Positions 2,764-11,748 of a stretch of 11,955 nucleotides of DNA are shown piece after piece. Source of the DNA: Candidatus Eiseniibacteriota bacterium (GTDB lineage Bacteria > Eisenbacteria > RBG-16-71-46); NCBI GenBank assembly GCA_041483195.1, contig JBGPFC010000060.1, positions 1-11,955 of the forward strand. The letters are read 5' to 3'. The position numbers were made by a program, and so were the translations under genes. Under the pieces are notes generated by a model that was not told the origin of the DNA, made no database searches, and was given only the letters and a program-made list of their open reading frames with translations. Position 1 is the first letter of the stretch, and each line of letters opens with the position of its first letter.

Positions 2764-3684
2764 ATGGTCACCAGGAAACGCCAGATCGAGATCATCGGCG
2801 TGCCCGTGGACTTGGGCGCCGGCCGCCGCGGCGTCGACATGGGCCCCTCCGCGATTCGCATCGCCGACCTCGAGCCGCGTCTCGAGCAGCTGGGGCACAA
2901 GGTGCTCGACACCGGCGACATCGACGTGATGATCCCCGAGACTCAGAAAGTCGGGGCGGGAAAGCTCCGCTACAAGACGCCGGTGATGGCCGCGTGCGAG
3001 GAGCTGCGCAAGCGGGTGGAGAAGAGCCTCGGTGAGGGGCGGCTCCCGCTCGTGATCGGCGGCGACCACAGCATCGCGATCGGATCGGTCGCGGGCTCCA
3101 CCAATCACTACGCGCGCCAGAACGAGGGCCTCGGACTCATCTGGTTCGACGCGCACGGCGACGCCAACACGCCAGAGAGCACGCCGTCTGGAAACATCCA
3201 CGGCATGTCGCTCGCGGTCTCGCTCGGCCTCGGCGACTCGGATCTCGTGAACCTCGGCGAGCGCTCGCCCAAGGTGCTCGCGCGCAACACCGTGCTGATC
3301 GGCATCCGCGACCTCGACCCCGGCGAGCGCGAGATTCTGAAGAAGAGCGGCGTCACCGTGTACACCATGCGCGACGTGGACGAGCGCGGCATGCGCGACG
3401 TCGTGGACGAGGCGATCCGCCTCGCCGGCGACAACACCGCCGGCATCCACCTCTCGTTCGATCTCGACGTGGTCGACCCCGAGGACGCGCCCGGCACCGG
3501 AACGCCGGTGTGGGGCGGCATCACCTACCGCGAGGCCCACCTCGCGATGGAAATGCTGAGCGACCGCGCGCAGATCGTGGCGATCGACCTGGTCGAGGTG
3601 AACCCGGTGCTCGACACGCAGAACATGACCGGGATCCTCGCCGCCGAGCTCGCGCAGAGCGTGCTCGGGAAGCGAATTCTCTAG
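2764..3684 (+). CDS. rocF: Arginase, 306 aa
   Basis: GVPVDLGAGRRGVDMGPSAIR, GGDHS, DAHGD, SGNIHGM, SFDLDVVDP and EVNP arginase motifs with intact Mn-binding residues. Confidence 0.97.
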   Translation: MVTRKRQIEIIGVPVDLGAGRRGVDMGPSAIRIADLEPRLEQLGHKVLDTGDIDVMIPETQKVGAGKLRYKTPVMAACEELRKRVEKSLGEGRLPLVIGGDHSIAIGSVAGSTNHYARQNEGLGLIWFDAHGDANTPESTPSGNIHGMSLAVSLGLGDSDLVNLGERSPKVLARNTVLIGIRDLDPGEREILKKSGVTVYTMRDVDERGMRDVVDEAIRLAGDNTAGIHLSFDLDVVDPEDAPGTGTPVWGGITYREAHLAMEMLSDRAQIVAIDLVEVNPVLDTQNMTGILAAELAQSVLGKRIL

Positions 3685-3718
3685 GACGCGGGGAGGCGCG
3701 CGCCCGCGCGCCCCGGCC

Positions 3719-4189
3719 ATGCGCCGCATCGGAGTCGCGCTCGCCGGGTTGCTGATCGCGATCGTCGTCGCGGTGCTCGCCCCGCGCCCGACGCATCACG
3801 TTCCGCCGCCGTCGTCCGGGGCGGGCGGCGCGCCGGCGGCGCGAACGAGCGATGTGGCTCGTGCGCCCGGCGACGGCGCGGCGTCCGCGATCGCGCATCC
3901 CGAGATCGGTTTTCGCTCGCGCGAGCGTCTCGCCGAGCACTTCCGCAAGCACGGGCGGGAATTCGAAGCGCGCGACGAGTCGGACTACCTCGCGCTCGCG
4001 CAGGCGCTGCGCGATCGTGCTGCGGGAGGCGACGTGCTCGAAGCCGTGCGGAGCGACGGCGTGACCACGCGGTTCGATCGCGCGAGCGGCGCGTTCATCG
4101 CGTTCGACCGCGATCTGGTGATCCGCACCTGCTTCAAGCCGAACGACGGCGAGTCGTACTTCCGCCGCCAGCTCGAGCGCGAGCACTGA
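3719..4189 (+). CDS. Secreted or membrane-anchored protein with a polymorphic-toxin-like (putative RNase) C-terminal domain, 156 aa
   Basis: N-terminal MRR plus hydrophobic helix, a Pro/Ala linker, then HFRKHGREF...Y...A...FDRASGAF...D..IRTCFKP...YF..Q. This pattern is recalled from contact-dependent/Rhs/pyocin-like toxin tips; the function is inferred. Confidence 0.75.
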   Translation: MRRIGVALAGLLIAIVVAVLAPRPTHHVPPPSSGAGGAPAARTSDVARAPGDGAASAIAHPEIGFRSRERLAEHFRKHGREFEARDESDYLALAQALRDRAAGGDVLEAVRSDGVTTRFDRASGAFIAFDRDLVIRTCFKPNDGESYFRRQLEREH

Positions 4190-4191
4190 CG

Positions 4192-4680
4192 ATGAGCGAC
4201 GGCGACCCGCACGATTCCGGCACGCCGCAAGCTGGCGGCATTCGCGCGTTCCTGCGCGCGAGGGGCTGCGAGGATCGCATCGTGATCGGCGGGCTCGAGG
4301 GCCTGATCGCCGAGTGGGAGAGCATCGCGGAATCAGTCGAGGGCGGATATCCGCTCGACACGCTGGACGACTACCTCAACGACATGGACCTGCGCGAGCT
4401 GATCGAAGAGGCGCTCGCCGCGGTGCGGGGCCGGCACGACCCGCGCGCGGAAGCCGCCGGCGCGCTGCGCGCGGCGGGCGGCGCCGCGCTCGACGTGCGG
4501 CTCGCGTCGGCGGACGCGCGCATGCGTTCGGCGCTGGTCGCCGCGCGCGGCTGCCTGTGGGGCGAGGCGATCGGGGCGAAGCGCGGATGGAGCGCCGCGC
4601 GCGAGTGGTGGTACTTCATGCGCCCCGCACGCCCAGGTCCCGAGCTGCGCGCCGAGCTGGAAGCGCGGGGGCTCGCGTGA
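4192..4680 (+). CDS. Hypothetical cytoplasmic protein with acidic core; candidate immunity protein, 162 aa
   Basis: Starts 2 nt after the upstream stop, and its stop overlaps the next ATG. Contains an acidic segment W....ESVEGGY...LDDYLNDMDLR and a WWYFMRP motif. Confidence 0.75.
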   Translation: MSDGDPHDSGTPQAGGIRAFLRARGCEDRIVIGGLEGLIAEWESIAESVEGGYPLDTLDDYLNDMDLRELIEEALAAVRGRHDPRAEAAGALRAAGGAALDVRLASADARMRSALVAARGCLWGEAIGAKRGWSAAREWWYFMRPARPGPELRAELEARGLA

Positions 4681-5660
4681 TGGCGCTGCTGCTCGACGAG
4701 GCGGCGGTCGCGAGCGTGCTGCGGATGGCGCCCCTCATCGACCTCATGGAGCGCACGCTCGCGGACTTCTCGACCGGCCGCGCGCTCCAGCCGGTGCGCA
4801 CGGCGATGGCGCTCGAGCCCCACGGTTCGTTCCTCGCGAGCATGCCCGCGTACCTGCGAGAGAGCGGGGCACTCGCGGTCAAGCTCGTGACGCTCGCCGA
4901 GCAGAACTCGGAACGCGGCCTGCCGACCCACCTCGCCACCGTGCTGCTGTTCGATCCAGCGACCGGAGCGCTGCTCGCGCTGATGGACGGACGGCTCATC
5001 ACCGAGATGCGCACCGCTGCGGTCTCGGCCGCCGCGGCGCGCACCCTCGCGCGCGGCGACGCCGGGACGCTCGCGTTGCTGGGCTCGGGCGTCCAGGCGA
5101 AGAGCCATCTCGAGGCGTTCGCGCGGGTGCGCAAGCTGAAGCACGTGCGCGTGTGGAGCCCGACGCGCGAGCATCGCGAGGCGTTCGCGCGCGAGCAGTC
5201 GGCGCCGAGCGGGATCGCGGTCGATGCGGCGGGCTCGGCCGAAGAGGCGGTGCGCGGGGCCGACCTGGTGGTGGTCGCGACCGCGAGCCGCGATGCGGTG
5301 CTGCGCGGGGCGTGGCTCGCCGACGGCGCGCACGTCACCGGCGTCGGCGCGTTCCGCCCCGACCGACGCGAGCTGGACGCCGCGGCGGTCGCGCGCGCGA
5401 GCGTGTACGTGGACTCGCGGGCGGGCGCCGCCGCGGAGGCCGGGGATCTCATCCAGGCGCTCGCCGAGGGCGCCATCACCGCCGACCACGTGCGCGGCGA
5501 GATCGGCGAGGTGTTCGCGGGACGCATCGCGGGCCGGCGCGATCCGCGCGAGATCACGTTCTTCAAGTCGCTCGGCATGGCGGTCGAGGACGCGGCGACC
5601 GCGCAGCACGCGTATCGACTCGCGCGCGAGCGGGGGCTGGGGCGGGAGATCGCGCTCTAG
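4680..5660 (+). CDS. Ornithine cyclodeaminase / mu-crystallin family protein, 326 aa
   Basis: Start at ATG 4680 (TGATG overlap). Motifs MPAY, VKLV, LFDPATG..LALMDG..IT.MRTAAVS, LLGSGVQA, FKSLGMAVED. In the same operon as arginase. Confidence 0.93.
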   Translation: MALLLDEAAVASVLRMAPLIDLMERTLADFSTGRALQPVRTAMALEPHGSFLASMPAYLRESGALAVKLVTLAEQNSERGLPTHLATVLLFDPATGALLALMDGRLITEMRTAAVSAAAARTLARGDAGTLALLGSGVQAKSHLEAFARVRKLKHVRVWSPTREHREAFAREQSAPSGIAVDAAGSAEEAVRGADLVVVATASRDAVLRGAWLADGAHVTGVGAFRPDRRELDAAAVARASVYVDSRAGAAAEAGDLIQALAEGAITADHVRGEIGEVFAGRIAGRRDPREITFFKSLGMAVEDAATAQHAYRLARERGLGREIAL

Positions 5661-8245: not shown

Positions 8246-8695
8246 CTACTTCTTTGTATGGTGCGAGCGCGACGACGACCTGGGCGGCCCGCGCTCCCAC
8301 TTGTCCTTCGCCTTCGCCTCTTCCGTCGTCTGCCACTGCATGTTGCTCGGCGAATCGGCGCCGCCGCGGCTCAACGGGACGATGTGGTCGACCACGTGCC
8401 CGGGCCAGCCGTTCGGATGCCCGGTCTGCTTCTCGAACGCGCGCTTCGCCTCGGGGTCCCGGGCGATGCGGCCGTGGGAATCGCGCTTCACGCCCGGGGT
8501 GTACGTGGAGCGATGCCCCGAATAGGAGTGCGAGGATCGGTGCGACGACCCGCCGCCGTGGTAGGCGCCCGCGCCGCGCCGCGCGTCGGCCGGCAGTACG
8601 AGGGAGAACAGCCCGAGGAGGGCGACGCCGATCGCCGCCGCACGCCGAAGGCGCGCGCGGATCTGCGGGCGGAGCGATGCCGAAGATGGGAGCAC
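8246..8695 (-). CDS. HNH-endonuclease-signature protein with predicted signal peptide (start uncertain)
   Basis: GHVVDHIVPLSRGGADSPSNMQWQ HNH-type motif; RRAAAIGVALLGLFSLVLPADA signal-peptide-like N-terminus; His/Ser/Gly-rich linker. Confidence 0.82.
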   Translation of the reverse strand: MLPSSASLRPQIRARLRRAAAIGVALLGLFSLVLPADARRGAGAYHGGGSSHRSSHSYSGHRSTYTPGVKRDSHGRIARDPEAKRAFEKQTGHPNGWPGHVVDHIVPLSRGGADSPSNMQWQTTEEAKAKDKWERGPPRSSSRSHHTKK

Positions 8696-8771
8696 GAGAG
8701 TGGTGAGCCGCGGGGATGATAAGACCGCGGGCCCGGGGTGGGGAAGGACGAAGCGCGGCGCACTTCAGGCC

Positions 8772-8801
8772 TTGACGCCGCCCGCCGCGGTCCGTCATCA
8801 T
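8772..8801 (+). promoter_or_regulatory. Putative promoter for the leader and sulfur operon (TTGACG-18 bp-CATCAT)
   Basis: 5/6 -35 match at 8772-8777 and 4/6 -10 match at 8796-8801, upstream of the leader ORF. Confidence 0.45.
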
Positions 8802-8866
8802 TCATCAGTTCTCGAAAGCCCGCCGGGCTCCCCGGCGGCTGCAGCCTCAAGAGGCACACCACCGTC

Positions 8867-8959
8867 ATGCAGCTTCGCAGCGTCCACGCAACGACGTGTT
8901 GTTGTCGAATGCTCCGCGGGGGCATGCGATGTCGGTGCGTTGGCGCACGGAGTGACTGA
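8867..8959 (+). CDS. Cys/Met-rich leader (attenuator) peptide MQLRSVHATTCCCRMLRGGMRCRCVGARSD, 30 aa
   Basis: ATG 8867 to TGA 8959. Five Cys codons including TGT-TGT-TGT at 8897-8905, and three Met. Weak SD-like GAGG at 8851-8854. Lies between a promoter-like element and a terminator hairpin upstream of a sulfur-scavenging operon. Confidence 0.7.
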   Translation: MQLRSVHATTCCCRMLRGGMRCRCVGARSD

Positions 8960-9002
8960 GATTCCCGGCCGATAGGCCAAGAACAGGCCCAACACACACC
9001 GC

Positions 9003-9041
9003 ACCGCGGCTCCCATCCATCGGGAGCCGCGGTCGTTTTGT
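9003..9041 (+). terminator. Intrinsic terminator-like hairpin (attenuator) in the 5' leader of the ssuE operon
   Basis: Perfect 12-bp stem ACCGCGGCTCCC (9003-9014) / GGGAGCCGCGGT (9022-9033), 7-nt loop, followed by CGTTTTGT. The tail ends 15 nt before the ssuE ATG. Confidence 0.8.
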
Positions 9042-9056
9042 ATCACGGAGGAACCC

Positions 9057-9674
9057 ATGAGTTTCATCGCGCAGGCGTCCATGCTTCAGGCGGCCGGCAT
9101 CTCGTCGAGTCCGAGCGGGAGGGAATCGAAGTCGCGCATGCTCTTGGACCACGCCCTCGCCCGGCTCGGCGCGCTCGGCATCGCCTGCGAGCGCATCGAT
9201 CTCTCGAGCCTGCCCGCCGACGCGCTGCTGGGGCGGGTGCGCGACGCCGCGCTCGAGCGCGCGCTCGCGGCCGCCGCTTCCGCGCGCATCGTGCTCGCCG
9301 CGACTCCGATCTATCGCGCTACCTACAGCGGGCTGCTCAAGGTGTTCTTCGATCTGTTCCCGCACGGCGCGCTCGCAGGGGCGATCGCGATTCCGATCGC
9401 GACCGGCGGCAGCCCGGGCCACCTGCTCGCGATCGATCACGGATTGCGCCCGCTGTTCTCGAGCCTGGGCGCGGTGGTGGTGCCGACCAACGTCTACGCG
9501 GCGGACGAGCAATTCGCCGACGGCGTGCCGAGCCGCGCGCTGCTCGAGCGCCTCGACCGCGCGGTCGCTGAGGCGATCGCCCTCGCGCTCGGCGCGCGCG
9601 GGGGTCTGGAGCCCGTCTCGGAATCCTATCTCACGCGTGAAACCCAGGCCGAGCAAAGGCAGGTGGCATCATGA
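9057..9674 (+). CDS. ssuE: NAD(P)H-dependent FMN reductase (SsuE/MsuE-like), 205 aa
   Basis: SSSPS...SKS, ATPIYRATYSGLLKVFFD and IPIATGGSPGHLLAIDHGLRPL match SsuE/MsuE-type flavodoxin-fold reductases. SD GGAGGA at 9047-9052. Confidence 0.9.
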   Translation: MSFIAQASMLQAAGISSSPSGRESKSRMLLDHALARLGALGIACERIDLSSLPADALLGRVRDAALERALAAAASARIVLAATPIYRATYSGLLKVFFDLFPHGALAGAIAIPIATGGSPGHLLAIDHGLRPLFSSLGAVVVPTNVYAADEQFADGVPSRALLERLDRAVAEAIALALGARGGLEPVSESYLTRETQAEQRQVAS

Positions 9675-10636
9675 ACGTCCATCCCGACCGGCCGATCGCG
9701 ATCTTCCACGAGCACCCGGACTGGTTTCGCCCGCTGTTCGAGGCGTTCGAGCGGCGCGGCACGCCCTACGTGCGGCTCGATGCGACGACGCATCGCTACG
9801 ACGCGGCCGCGCCGCGACCGCCCTACGCGCTGGTGTTCAACCGCATGAGCCCCTCGGCTTGGCTGCGCGGCAACGGCCACGGCATCTTCTACACGCTCCA
9901 GTACCTCGAGCATCTCGAACGCCTCGGCGTGCGCGTGGTGAACGGCTACGACGCGTTTCTCACAGAGACCTCGAAGGCCCGCCAGCTCTCGCTGCTCGAG
10001 CGGCTCGGGCTGCGGTACCCGCGGGCGCGCGTGATCCACGACGCCGCGCACGCGCCGGCCGCGGCGCATGGCCTGCGCTTCCCGGTTGTCGTGAAGCCCA
10101 ACATCGGAGGGAGCGGCGCGGGCGTGCGGCGGTTCGACACGATCGAGGCGTTGCGCGCGGCGGCGGCCGAGGCGTGGGATCTCGGCATCGACCAGACCGC
10201 GCTGGTGCAGGAATTCATCCCGGCGGAAGGCGGTCGCATCGTCCGCGTCGAGGTGCTGGGCGGCAAGTATCTCTACGCGATCCGCGTGTACCCAGACGGC
10301 GACCGCTACGACCTGTGCCCCGCCGACATCTGCCAGGGCGTGGACGGCGTCGAGCTGGCGCGCAGCGCGTGCCCGGTGGACGCTCCGAAGAACGGGCTCA
10401 AGGTCGAGGGCTACACGCCCCCGGCCGAGATCGTCTCCGAGGTGGAGCGCATCATGGCCGCTGCGCGGATCGACGTCGGCGGCGTCGAGTACATGATCGA
10501 CGCGCGCGACGGCACGCACTCGTACTACGACATCAACGCGCTCTCCAACTTCGTGGCCGACAGCCCGCGGGTGGTGGGATTCGACGCGTACGACCGGCTC
10601 GCCGAGTTCCTCGAGACCGAGGCGGTGCGCGCATGA
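9671..10636 (+). CDS. RimK/glutathione-synthetase-like ATP-grasp protein, 321 aa
   Basis: FNRMSPS, VVNG...SK, FPVVVKPNIGGSGAGV, LVQEFIP and YYDINALSNF ATP-grasp motifs. ATGA overlaps at both ends. Confidence 0.9.
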   Translation: MNVHPDRPIAIFHEHPDWFRPLFEAFERRGTPYVRLDATTHRYDAAAPRPPYALVFNRMSPSAWLRGNGHGIFYTLQYLEHLERLGVRVVNGYDAFLTETSKARQLSLLERLGLRYPRARVIHDAAHAPAAAHGLRFPVVVKPNIGGSGAGVRRFDTIEALRAAAAEAWDLGIDQTALVQEFIPAEGGRIVRVEVLGGKYLYAIRVYPDGDRYDLCPADICQGVDGVELARSACPVDAPKNGLKVEGYTPPAEIVSEVERIMAAARIDVGGVEYMIDARDGTHSYYDINALSNFVADSPRVVGFDAYDRLAEFLETEAVRA

Positions 10637-11748
10637 GATTCGGATACTGGCTTCCGGTGTTCGGCGGCTGGCTGCGCAACGTCGCCGACGAGCAGATGGA
10701 CGCGAGCTGGGACTACGTGCGCCGGCTCGCGCAGCGCAGCGAGGCGATCGGCTTCGACGTGACGCTGGTCGCCGAGCTCAACCTGAACGACATCAAGGGC
10801 GCGGACGCCCCGGCGCTCGACGCGTGGACCACGGCGGCGGCGCTCGCCGCCGTGACCGAGCGGCTCGAGATCATGATCGCGGTGCGGCCCACGTTCCATC
10901 CGCCCGCGCTGCTCGCGAAGCAGGCCGCGAACCTCGACCAGCTGAGCGGCGGGCGCGTGTCGCTCAACGTGGTGTCGTCGTGGTGGGAGGACGAGGCGCG
11001 CCAGTACGGCGTCGCGTTCGATCAGCACGATCAGCGTTACGCGCGCACCGGCGAATGGCTCGCGGTGGTGGACGGCATGTGGCGCGAGCCGCGCTTCAGC
11101 TACGCGGGGCGCTTCTACCGCGTCGATGGCGCGATCCTCGAGCCCAAGCCGATCGCGCGGCCGGTGCTGTACGCGGGCGGCGAGTCCGAGGCCGCGAAGG
11201 AGCTGATCGCGCGCTCCTGCGACGGCTACCTCATGCACGGCGATCCGCCCGAGCGCGTCGCGGGGAAGATCGCGGACCTGGGCGCGCGGCGCGCGCGATG
11301 GAGCCTGCCGCCGCTGCGATTCGGCGTAGCGGGCTACGTGGTGTGCCGCGACTCCGATGCGGAGGCGGAGGCCGAGCTCGCGCGCATCACCAAGCTGCGT
11401 CCGGGCGCTCCCGGCTTCGCCAACTTCGGGCAATGGGTGGCGGGCACGCAGCTCGAGCAGAGGCTCAAGCTCGAGGACTACGCCGTCTCGAACCGCGGCC
11501 TGCGCGCGGGGCTGGTCGGCACCCCCGACACCATCGCCGCGCGGATTCGCGAGTTCGAGCGCGCCGGGGTCGAGCTGCTGCTGCTCCAGTTCAGCCCGCA
11601 GCGCGAGGAGATGGAGCGCTTCGCCGCGGAGGTGATGCCGCGGGTGCGCGAATCGAATGGGAGCGTCCCGCGCCCCGCGGGCGGCAACGGAGCGCGCGCC
11701 GACCGGGCGGGCGCCCACCGGCCGCGGATCGAGATCCCGGCCCGGTGA
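10633..11748 (+). CDS. LLM-class (luciferase-like) FMNH2-dependent monooxygenase, SfnG/SsuD-like, 371 aa
   Basis: Start at ATG 10633 (ATGA overlap). MRFGYWLPVFGGW, AAALAAVTERLEIMIAVRP, AKQAANLDQLSGGRVSLNVVS, YAGGESEAA and LVGTPDTIA motifs. Confidence 0.93.
   Translation: MRFGYWLPVFGGWLRNVADEQMDASWDYVRRLAQRSEAIGFDVTLVAELNLNDIKGADAPALDAWTTAAALAAVTERLEIMIAVRPTFHPPALLAKQAANLDQLSGGRVSLNVVSSWWEDEARQYGVAFDQHDQRYARTGEWLAVVDGMWREPRFSYAGRFYRVDGAILEPKPIARPVLYAGGESEAAKELIARSCDGYLMHGDPPERVAGKIADLGARRARWSLPPLRFGVAGYVVCRDSDAEAEAELARITKLRPGAPGFANFGQWVAGTQLEQRLKLEDYAVSNRGLRAGLVGTPDTIAARIREFERAGVELLLLQFSPQREEMERFAAEVMPRVRESNGSVPRPAGGNGARADRAGAHRPRIEIPAR

Follow-up and report, generated by a model that had tools for sequence, protein, structure and literature searches.

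The stretch of DNA studied here, referred to as the window, is 11,955 nucleotides (nt) long and comes from a Candidatus Eiseniibacteriota bacterium (contig JBGPFC010000060.1). It carries a three-gene operon encoding an SsuE-like flavin mononucleotide (FMN) reductase, an ATP-grasp ligase and a luciferase-like monooxygenase, preceded by a short cysteine-rich open reading frame (ORF) and a predicted intrinsic terminator. All of the leader elements lie in the 361 nt that separate the SsuE-like gene (9057-9674) from a small divergent gene on the minus strand (8246-8695); they are listed here in window coordinates together with the genes of the operon.

8772 to 8801, plus strand: promoter-like site, with a -35 element at 8772-8777, an 18-nt spacer and a -10 element at 8796-8801 (9 of 12 consensus matches)
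8817 to 8840, plus strand: G+C-rich hairpin, not followed by a T tract, in what is predicted to be the 5' untranslated region (from predicted folds)
8849 to 8854, plus strand: purine-rich stretch resembling a Shine-Dalgarno (SD) sequence, 12 nt 5' of the leader ATG, predicted to lie inside a small hairpin
8867 to 8959, plus strand: leader ORF of 30 codons and a stop, with homologous ORFs in relatives
8897 to 8905, plus strand: run of three cysteine (Cys) codons, all TGT; proposed stall site
8897 to 8937, plus strand: hairpin P1 (segments 1 and 2), from the RNAalifold consensus; -17.8 kcal/mol predicted
8918 to 8945, plus strand: putative antiterminator 5' strand (segment 2), wholly within the leader ORF and 3' of the Cys run, from folds constrained by a ribosome footprint on the Cys codons
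8988 to 9014, plus strand: putative antiterminator 3' strand (segment 3), made up of the terminator 5' arm and the 15 bases before it
9003 to 9043, plus strand: predicted intrinsic terminator (segments 3 and 4), with the helix at 9003-9033 and a T-rich tail at 9034-9043
9047 to 9051, plus strand: SD of the first structural gene, GGAGG, five bases before the ATG at 9057 and outside the terminator stem
9057 to 9674, plus strand: SsuE-like NADPH-dependent FMN reductase, 205 amino acids (Pfam FMN_red, 6.4e-23)
9671 to 10636, plus strand: ATP-grasp ligase of the RimK/LysX type, 321 amino acids, its start overlapping the ssuE stop
10633 to 11748, plus strand: luciferase-like monooxygenase related to SfnG/SsuD, 371 amino acids (Pfam, 9.7e-63), its start overlapping the ATP-grasp stop

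The elements picked out by the initial annotation, namely a promoter-like element, a 30-codon ORF with the peptide runs CCC and RCRC (5 Cys and 3 Met), a 12-bp hairpin with a T-rich tail, an SD and ssuE, were all found to be present. Besides the run at 8897-8905, the leader ORF has single Cys codons at 8930-8932 and 8936-8938, and its frame is open further 5', up to a GTG at 8738. The 5' arm of P1 takes in the Cys codons together with the 11 bases that follow them, and its 3' arm is 8919-8937. The terminator has 12 perfect pairs, 10 of them G-C, with a 7-nt loop and a tail containing 6 T in 10 positions (-28.6 kcal/mol predicted). Between 7800 and 9800 one sigma-70-like site was observed, against 0.2 expected from shuffled sequences, and the promoter-like site predicts a transcript start near 8808, 59 nt 5' of the leader ATG. 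A similar -35/-10 pair is present 5' of the leaders in some relatives, where the promoter region aligns poorly, and SD-like stretches were seen 8-13 nt 5' of the leader ATG in four of the six relatives inspected. The leader DNA is single-copy in its own genome, and an Rfam search of 8600-9150 at E values up to 10 returned only noise (best 20 bits, for a gathering score of 55).

For the Cys codons, it had been claimed initially that the leader favours TGT where the ATP-grasp gene uses TGC, and this proved accurate, with four TGT and one TGC in the leader against no TGT and three TGC in the ATP-grasp gene. Summed over seven genes of the window there are 2 TGT and 22 TGC codons, and the long ORFs of the genome contain 933 and 7294, respectively. 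The TGT excess is a real bias, for which G-U pairing in P1 is an alternative explanation to decoding; it may serve this pairing, slower decoding, or both.

It is the comparison with other genomes, rather than the window alone, that places the feature beyond chance. A loose scan of the window's own genome for a Cys-rich ORF followed by a terminator gave 31 matches in 4.17 Mb, nearly all of them off-frame noise in DNA of 71% G+C, and only this locus and one other look real. The other (contig 15, 3236-3322, plus strand) is an ORF of 28 codons with 5 Cys in 8 residues; it has a 14-bp terminator after it and precedes genes for a PMT_2 glycosyltransferase, a UDP-glucose dehydrogenase and a GT4 protein, none of which is related to sulfur.

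For the comparison, 80 loci with ATP-grasp homologues were sampled, with one genome per species, out of at least 134 confirmed stretches, and 73 of them were usable in having at least 350 nt of upstream DNA. The 80 loci belong to Eisenbacteria, Acidobacteriota, Gemmatimonadota, Bacteroidota and a few other phyla. The ATP-grasp and monooxygenase genes are adjacent in nearly all of the 80 loci, and the reductase gene is present in a minority. Under a fixed rule, the ORF was to have at most 90 codons and at least 3 Cys in 8 residues, with a hairpin and T tract no more than 130 nt after its stop, and the whole module was to lie no more than 700 nt upstream of the first gene. The Cys-rich ORF and terminator were found at 28 of the 73 loci, with none on the opposite strand (0/73) and none in a coding-region control (0/71). 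Within the Eisenbacteria, the module was present in 10 of the 11 other genomes with upstream DNA, the exception being a paralogue-like match of 38% identity. The ATP-grasp gene itself is patchy in this phylum, being found in 13 of 206 genomes and missing from the three other members of the window's genus, and ATP-grasp proteins with 60-86% identity were found in other phyla; together these suggest that the operon has spread horizontally.

At seven more loci a poly-Cys ORF was recognised by eye where the strict terminator rule failed. Four of them are Pontibacter/Sabulibacter loci (Bacteroidota), with ORFs that end in five to seven Cys codons and are not followed by a clear terminator. The Pontibacter and Sabulibacter leaders of this kind, seen at five loci in all, have 34-39 codons, with the Cys codons directly before the stop, and lie about 240-280 nt upstream of the ATP-grasp gene. 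Judged from their sequences, they may have a different mode of action. A pattern scan of metagenomes with the conserved hairpin core matched at least 120 stretches; among the 80 examined there were three leaders and 77 chance matches.

Leaders of this kind were also seen in other settings. In another genome, which also carries an ATP-grasp locus (L016), a poly-Cys leader with two tandem terminators (L230:1-180) precedes a gene resembling a TonB-dependent receptor, with a CarboxypepD_reg domain and an outer-membrane barrel. A further ORF, in which Cys and Met alternate in five pairs, was seen at L063:2481-2699, 1.1 kb 5' of the ATP-grasp gene, and after it come a long imperfect hairpin and a T tract. 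This ORF precedes another one with a signal-peptide-like start, so the operon at this locus may begin with an extra gene. Five genomes were searched for a Cys-rich ORF upstream of sulfite reductase, and none was present in the upstream DNA of the two carriers, in which the operon starts were not covered.

Between groups the leaders have no common sequence, and what they share is a Cys run, in frame with a start and a stop, that precedes a terminator. The run is very often interleaved with or flanked by methionine (Met) codons, and a Met lies within two residues of a Cys in 24 of 27 leaders. Over these 27 leaders Cys makes up 16.1% and internal Met 7.7% of the residues, the median for Cys in the long ORFs of the genome being 1.05%. 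Both Cys codons are used (73 TGT and 65 TGC over 29 leaders), and by the strict rule a terminator separates ORF and gene in 27 of the 29 leaders examined. The peptides vary in length from 19 to about 39 residues, and some stop right after the Cys run. This pattern fits selection on decoding rather than on an RNA motif or a peptide product.

The window's own group consists of ten sequences, from seven genomes and three metagenome contigs, and all of these keep the Cys run, either as 3-5 Cys or with other residues set between the Cys. On the 3' side of the run the bases are nearly invariant, including those at third codon positions, and the residues vary. The RCRC pair, which the initial annotation had listed beside the CCC run, is not a conserved sensor. 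It is present in only some members of the group and its codons vary among the relatives; what is kept is the base sequence beneath it, whose pairing partner is the Cys run or the terminator flank.

The pairing of P1 and the terminator is well conserved in these ten sequences, with 92.4% of cells paired against 36-51% when slid, four pairs changed on both sides, and a covariation score that was reached by none of 500 shuffles. P1 is 87% paired and the terminator helix 100% paired, with two of the doubly changed pairs in each. When a ribosome footprint is placed on the Cys codons and the RNA is cut before the terminator 3' arm, 8918-8945, which takes in the 3' arm of P1, is predicted to pair with 8988-9014 in a duplex of -37.5 kcal/mol, and none of 300 shuffles was equally stable. 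Duplexes of -30 to -39 kcal/mol are predicted in all ten close relatives, and in nine of them no more than 9 of 300 dinucleotide shuffles were as stable (36 of 300 in the tenth). In a scan of footprint positions with the RNA cut in the same way, the terminator 5' arm was about 0.8 paired, to RNA upstream of it, for A-site positions at or before the Cys run, and 0.3-0.5 paired for ribosome positions on codons 15-24. The antiterminator core of 12 pairs is also conserved, with 90.8% of cells paired against 40-53% when slid. Lineages with different terminator sequences, namely distant Eisenbacteria and other phyla, have an ORF segment matching their own terminator arm, and over nine leader groups the difference between cognate and non-cognate complementarity was reached by 45 of 20000 permutations.

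With good confidence, we interpret the element as a leader-peptide attenuator of transcription, mediated by the ribosome, which responds to charged tRNA-Cys and probably to charged tRNA-Met as well. Transcription would begin at about 8808 and the leader ORF would be translated. When Cys-tRNA is plentiful, the ribosome would pass the three Cys codons and occupy or unwind segment 2 during the synthesis of segments 3 and 4, so that the terminator would form and most transcripts would stop near 9040. When Cys-tRNA is scarce, the ribosome would stall with a Cys codon in its A site and cover segment 1 only. The free segment 2 could then capture segment 3 before segment 4 exists, and the resulting antiterminator would let the polymerase read into the genes for the reductase, the ligase and the SfnG-like monooxygenase. 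After the Cys run the leader ORF continues for 17 codons, ending 10 nt 3' of segment 2, and as it reaches past this segment, its length rather than its sequence would be kept.

The support for this attenuator is comparative and consists of the anatomy, conservation and pairing potential of the leaders, from which we infer translation, stalling, termination and the physiological signal. That a translated Cys leader chooses between a terminator and readthrough was the central proposal of the initial annotation, and the conserved module, the hairpin formed by the Cys codons and the alternative antiterminator in all ten close relatives argue for it. As the antiterminator is predicted to be more stable (-37.5 kcal/mol) than either P1 (-17.8) or the terminator (-28.6), a leader that is not translated may read through, unlike the super-attenuation of the trp type. 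Methionine supply may be read as well, to judge from the Met codons next to the Cys run.

The gene content fits a sulfur signal, with an SsuE-like reductase and a monooxygenase of the SfnG/SsuD kind. The genes overlap by four bases at both junctions. The reductase scores 129.7 bits with the NCBIfam SsuE model (cut-off 164.05) and the monooxygenase 247.9 bits with the SfnG model (cut-off 382.95), so that by sequence the two are related to SsuE and SfnG but form a distinct subfamily. The monooxygenase matches PDB entry 3RAO, which has no assigned substrate, at 1.4e-126, and the best PDB match of the ATP-grasp protein is a probable alpha-L-glutamate ligase. Most likely, these enzymes together release sulfur from an organosulfur compound. 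The window's own genome, which is rated 96.8% complete, gave no match to the sulfite/nitrite reductase family PF01077; the organism may not assimilate sulfate, and this would make an organosulfur route more valuable.

Several findings weigh against the attenuator. The check proposed initially, an alignment of upstream regions, recovered the Cys-rich ORF with its terminator and covariation in P1 and the terminator, but no significant covariation in the antiterminator core. The core is conserved, with 7 of its 12 pairs invariant, and its covariation score was matched by 53 of 500 shuffles. In the test of cognate complementarity, three of the nine leader groups (D2, F and G) rank poorly. With the terminator arm alone as the target, cognate complementarity within the own group (0.66) was hardly better than non-cognate (about 0.6), and the duplex test against the 5' arm alone gave modest z-scores. 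In full-length equilibrium folds the probability of the terminator is at least 0.85 in 26 of 27 leaders, whichever codon is masked. As the terminator wins at equilibrium in every case, the modelled switch must be decided kinetically, as in the classical cases, and folding programs cannot show this. The module is missing, by the strict rule, from 45 of the 73 loci, including all 13 Gemmatimonadota loci in which ssuE comes first. The SD-like stretch of the leader has a long spacing (12 nt) and is predicted to be paired, and the proteins of the operon are only mildly poor in Cys and Met (20th-35th percentile). No RNA runs holding 8600-10600 are listed, and leader translation, the 3' end and regulation rest on inference.

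The most serious rival explanation is a functional Cys-rich peptide as the product of the ORF, since peptide-modification clusters are among the places where ATP-grasp enzymes and luciferase-like monooxygenases are found. The peptide could be a precursor similar to those of ribosomally synthesised and post-translationally modified peptides, modified by the ATP-grasp enzyme and the monooxygenase, or a small metal-binding peptide, and the hairpin would be a leaky terminator setting the ratio of peptide to enzyme. A terminator after the precursor gene is common in such clusters, and the ORF always adjoins the ATP-grasp/monooxygenase pair. The ATP-grasp protein does match the peptide-maturase model TIGR04187, but with 28 bits, far below the cut-off of 350, and its best matches are of the RimK/LysX type; the reductase and monooxygenase are likewise of the type that cleaves sulfonates or sulfones. 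The peptides have no conserved core, having only Cys and Met in common, and vary in length, and what the relatives keep after the Cys run is bases, down to third codon positions, and not residues. An ORF segment complementary to its own terminator would be needless in a plain precursor gene. At the four loci inspected 3' of the operon, the genes were uninformative and did not include a protease or exporter gene, and a similar leader precedes an unrelated outer-membrane receptor gene in another genome. A peptide product is thus, in our view, very unlikely. We give even less credence to the idea that the region is not translated and works as an RNA switch with a terminator of its own, whether as a riboswitch or by binding a protein; the Cys codons would then be incidental to a helix strand rich in U and G. 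It is true that the Cys codons, by G-U pairing, make up one strand of a conserved hairpin, that the SD of the window leader is weak, and that sulfur metabolism is often controlled by riboswitches. Against this, Rfam gave no match even at the permissive threshold, the opposite strand never carried the module, and the groups in different phyla share no sequence or fold, only in-frame Cys/Met runs with a start, a stop and a terminator.

Another possibility is that Cys is sensed by stalling, but that the stalled ribosome acts on translation of the first gene or on Rho-dependent polarity, with the hairpin as a constitutive partial terminator. The one class of poly-Cys leaders studied experimentally acts, as far as the accessible part of that report shows, on translation and without termination (10.1101/834739). 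Equilibrium folds that never lose the terminator would agree with such a mode, as would the Bacteroidota leaders, which precede the same operon and have no clear terminator. In every fold of the window leader, the partner of the Cys codons is 8933-8937, within the leader itself, and the ssuE SD is free of the terminator stem and unpaired with the Cys tract. A strong terminator with a T tract separates the ORF from the gene in nearly all leaders examined, and an antiterminator overlapping the terminator 5' arm is kept in all ten close relatives. For the window leader this mode is therefore unlikely; for the Bacteroidota form, a translational or Rho-mediated mode is more likely.

Leader-peptide attenuation is textbook knowledge for the trp, his, leu, thr, pheA and ilv operons of enterobacteria. 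The element proposed here resembles these in having a short leader ORF rich in the sensed codons, four pairing segments with the antiterminator 5' strand inside the ORF, and a predicted competition between terminator and antiterminator that is decided by the position of the ribosome. It differs from them in sensing Cys, often with Met beside it, in controlling genes that scavenge sulfur rather than synthesise an amino acid, in the greater predicted strength of its antiterminator relative to P1 and the terminator, and in its taxa, which are Eisenbacteria, Acidobacteriota and Gemmatimonadota. The ssu, msu and sfn operons respond to sulfur starvation under CysB, Cbl or SfnR. They share with the present operon a two-component system of FMN reductase and luciferase-like monooxygenase, which is expressed when preferred sulfur sources run out. 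In contrast to them, control would here be by a leader and terminator, with no transcription factor as far as seen, the ATP-grasp ligase is an obligate partner of the monooxygenase, and the SsuE and SfnG cut-offs are missed.

The initial annotation knew of no description of a Cys leader working through an intrinsic terminator on this type of operon; Cys leaders with an intrinsic terminator are, however, not wholly undescribed. The uORFC-8-2 motif, found before cysS in Rhodobacterales, has a predicted upstream ORF with two tandem Cys codons and an intrinsic terminator; its first stem holds the Cys codons, its second ends in a U run read as a terminator, and stalling would lead to readthrough, as described in the available part of the source (PMC8632094). 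The resemblance to the present leader is in design: no sequence relation was seen, and uORFC-8-2 is likewise a prediction only (PMC8632094). It is described there with two Cys codons, before cysS only and in one alphaproteobacterial order, whereas the leaders here have three to seven Cys codons and precede other genes. What is new here is the operon type, the taxa and the mixed Met/Cys runs.

In mycobacteria, leaderless short ORFs with polycysteine tracts act as attenuators of a 'Cys ribulon', in which the SD of the following gene is paired with the Cys tract; control is translational, with transcription past the leader insensitive to cysteine (10.1101/834739, from the portion of the text available). 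That study also states that no cysteine attenuation mediated by an upstream ORF had been described before (10.1101/834739). The present leaders are similar in having consecutive Cys codons in a short upstream ORF, and in the mycobacterial case several operons respond together (10.1101/834739). Unlike the mycobacterial ORFs, the window leader has a predicted transcript start well 5' of its ATG, a terminator and a free SD. One relative (L086) is possibly leaderless. In its accessible part, a paper of 2026 cites the mycobacterial case alone (PMC13236596), and a terminator survey of 2010 contains an unexplained attenuator before a sulfonate transporter in bacilli, for which the part available names no leader peptide (PMC2965389). 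Our literature search with phrases for cysteine leader peptides and attenuators, which had most subscription journals outside its coverage, returned no matching paper, and a search combining ATP-grasp, luciferase-like monooxygenase and sulfur starvation gave nothing relevant.

Among the neighbouring genes, the divergent one (8246-8695) encodes a protein of 149 amino acids with only weak matches, to HNH (2e-4) and peptidase M7 (4.7e-4). Genes for arginase and ornithine cyclodeaminase adjoin each other at 2764-5660 on the plus strand, which suggests an arginine-to-proline route. At the locus of the closest ATP-grasp relative (86% identity; L002:70-183), the reductase gene has shrunk to an ORF of about 38 codons that still encodes the opening residues of the SsuE-like protein found in the window; that contig begins too near for a leader to be seen.

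To our knowledge, cysteine has long been the missing amino acid among leader-peptide attenuators. The only terminator-type case for cysteine that we found in print, in sources available in part, is the cysS prediction in a single order, and the only tested case, in mycobacteria, is translational. The terminator-type design is now predicted in at least three little-studied phyla of soil and sediment, with a terminator-less cousin in Bacteroidota, and the control is tied to an ATP-grasp/monooxygenase pair of unassigned substrate and not to cysteine synthesis. More tentatively, and with the balance slightly against it, these leaders could form a cross-phylum class of sulfur amino-acid leaders that reads the charging of both tRNA-Cys and tRNA-Met through interleaved codons, in which termination needs translation through the antiterminator. 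Such a class would mark a widespread organosulfur-recovery pathway of soil bacteria, based on RimK-type ATP-grasp and SfnG-like enzymes, whose operon and leader would have spread together between phyla.

To summarise, the leader would provide a functional label, induction under shortage of Cys or Met, for a pair of genes that lacks annotation and is present in at least 134 genome stretches. It would be a compact Cys-responsive switch, and its Met codons raise the idea of a dual sensor. In these phyla, sulfur sensing by the ribosome may replace the control of sulfur scavenging by transcription factors.

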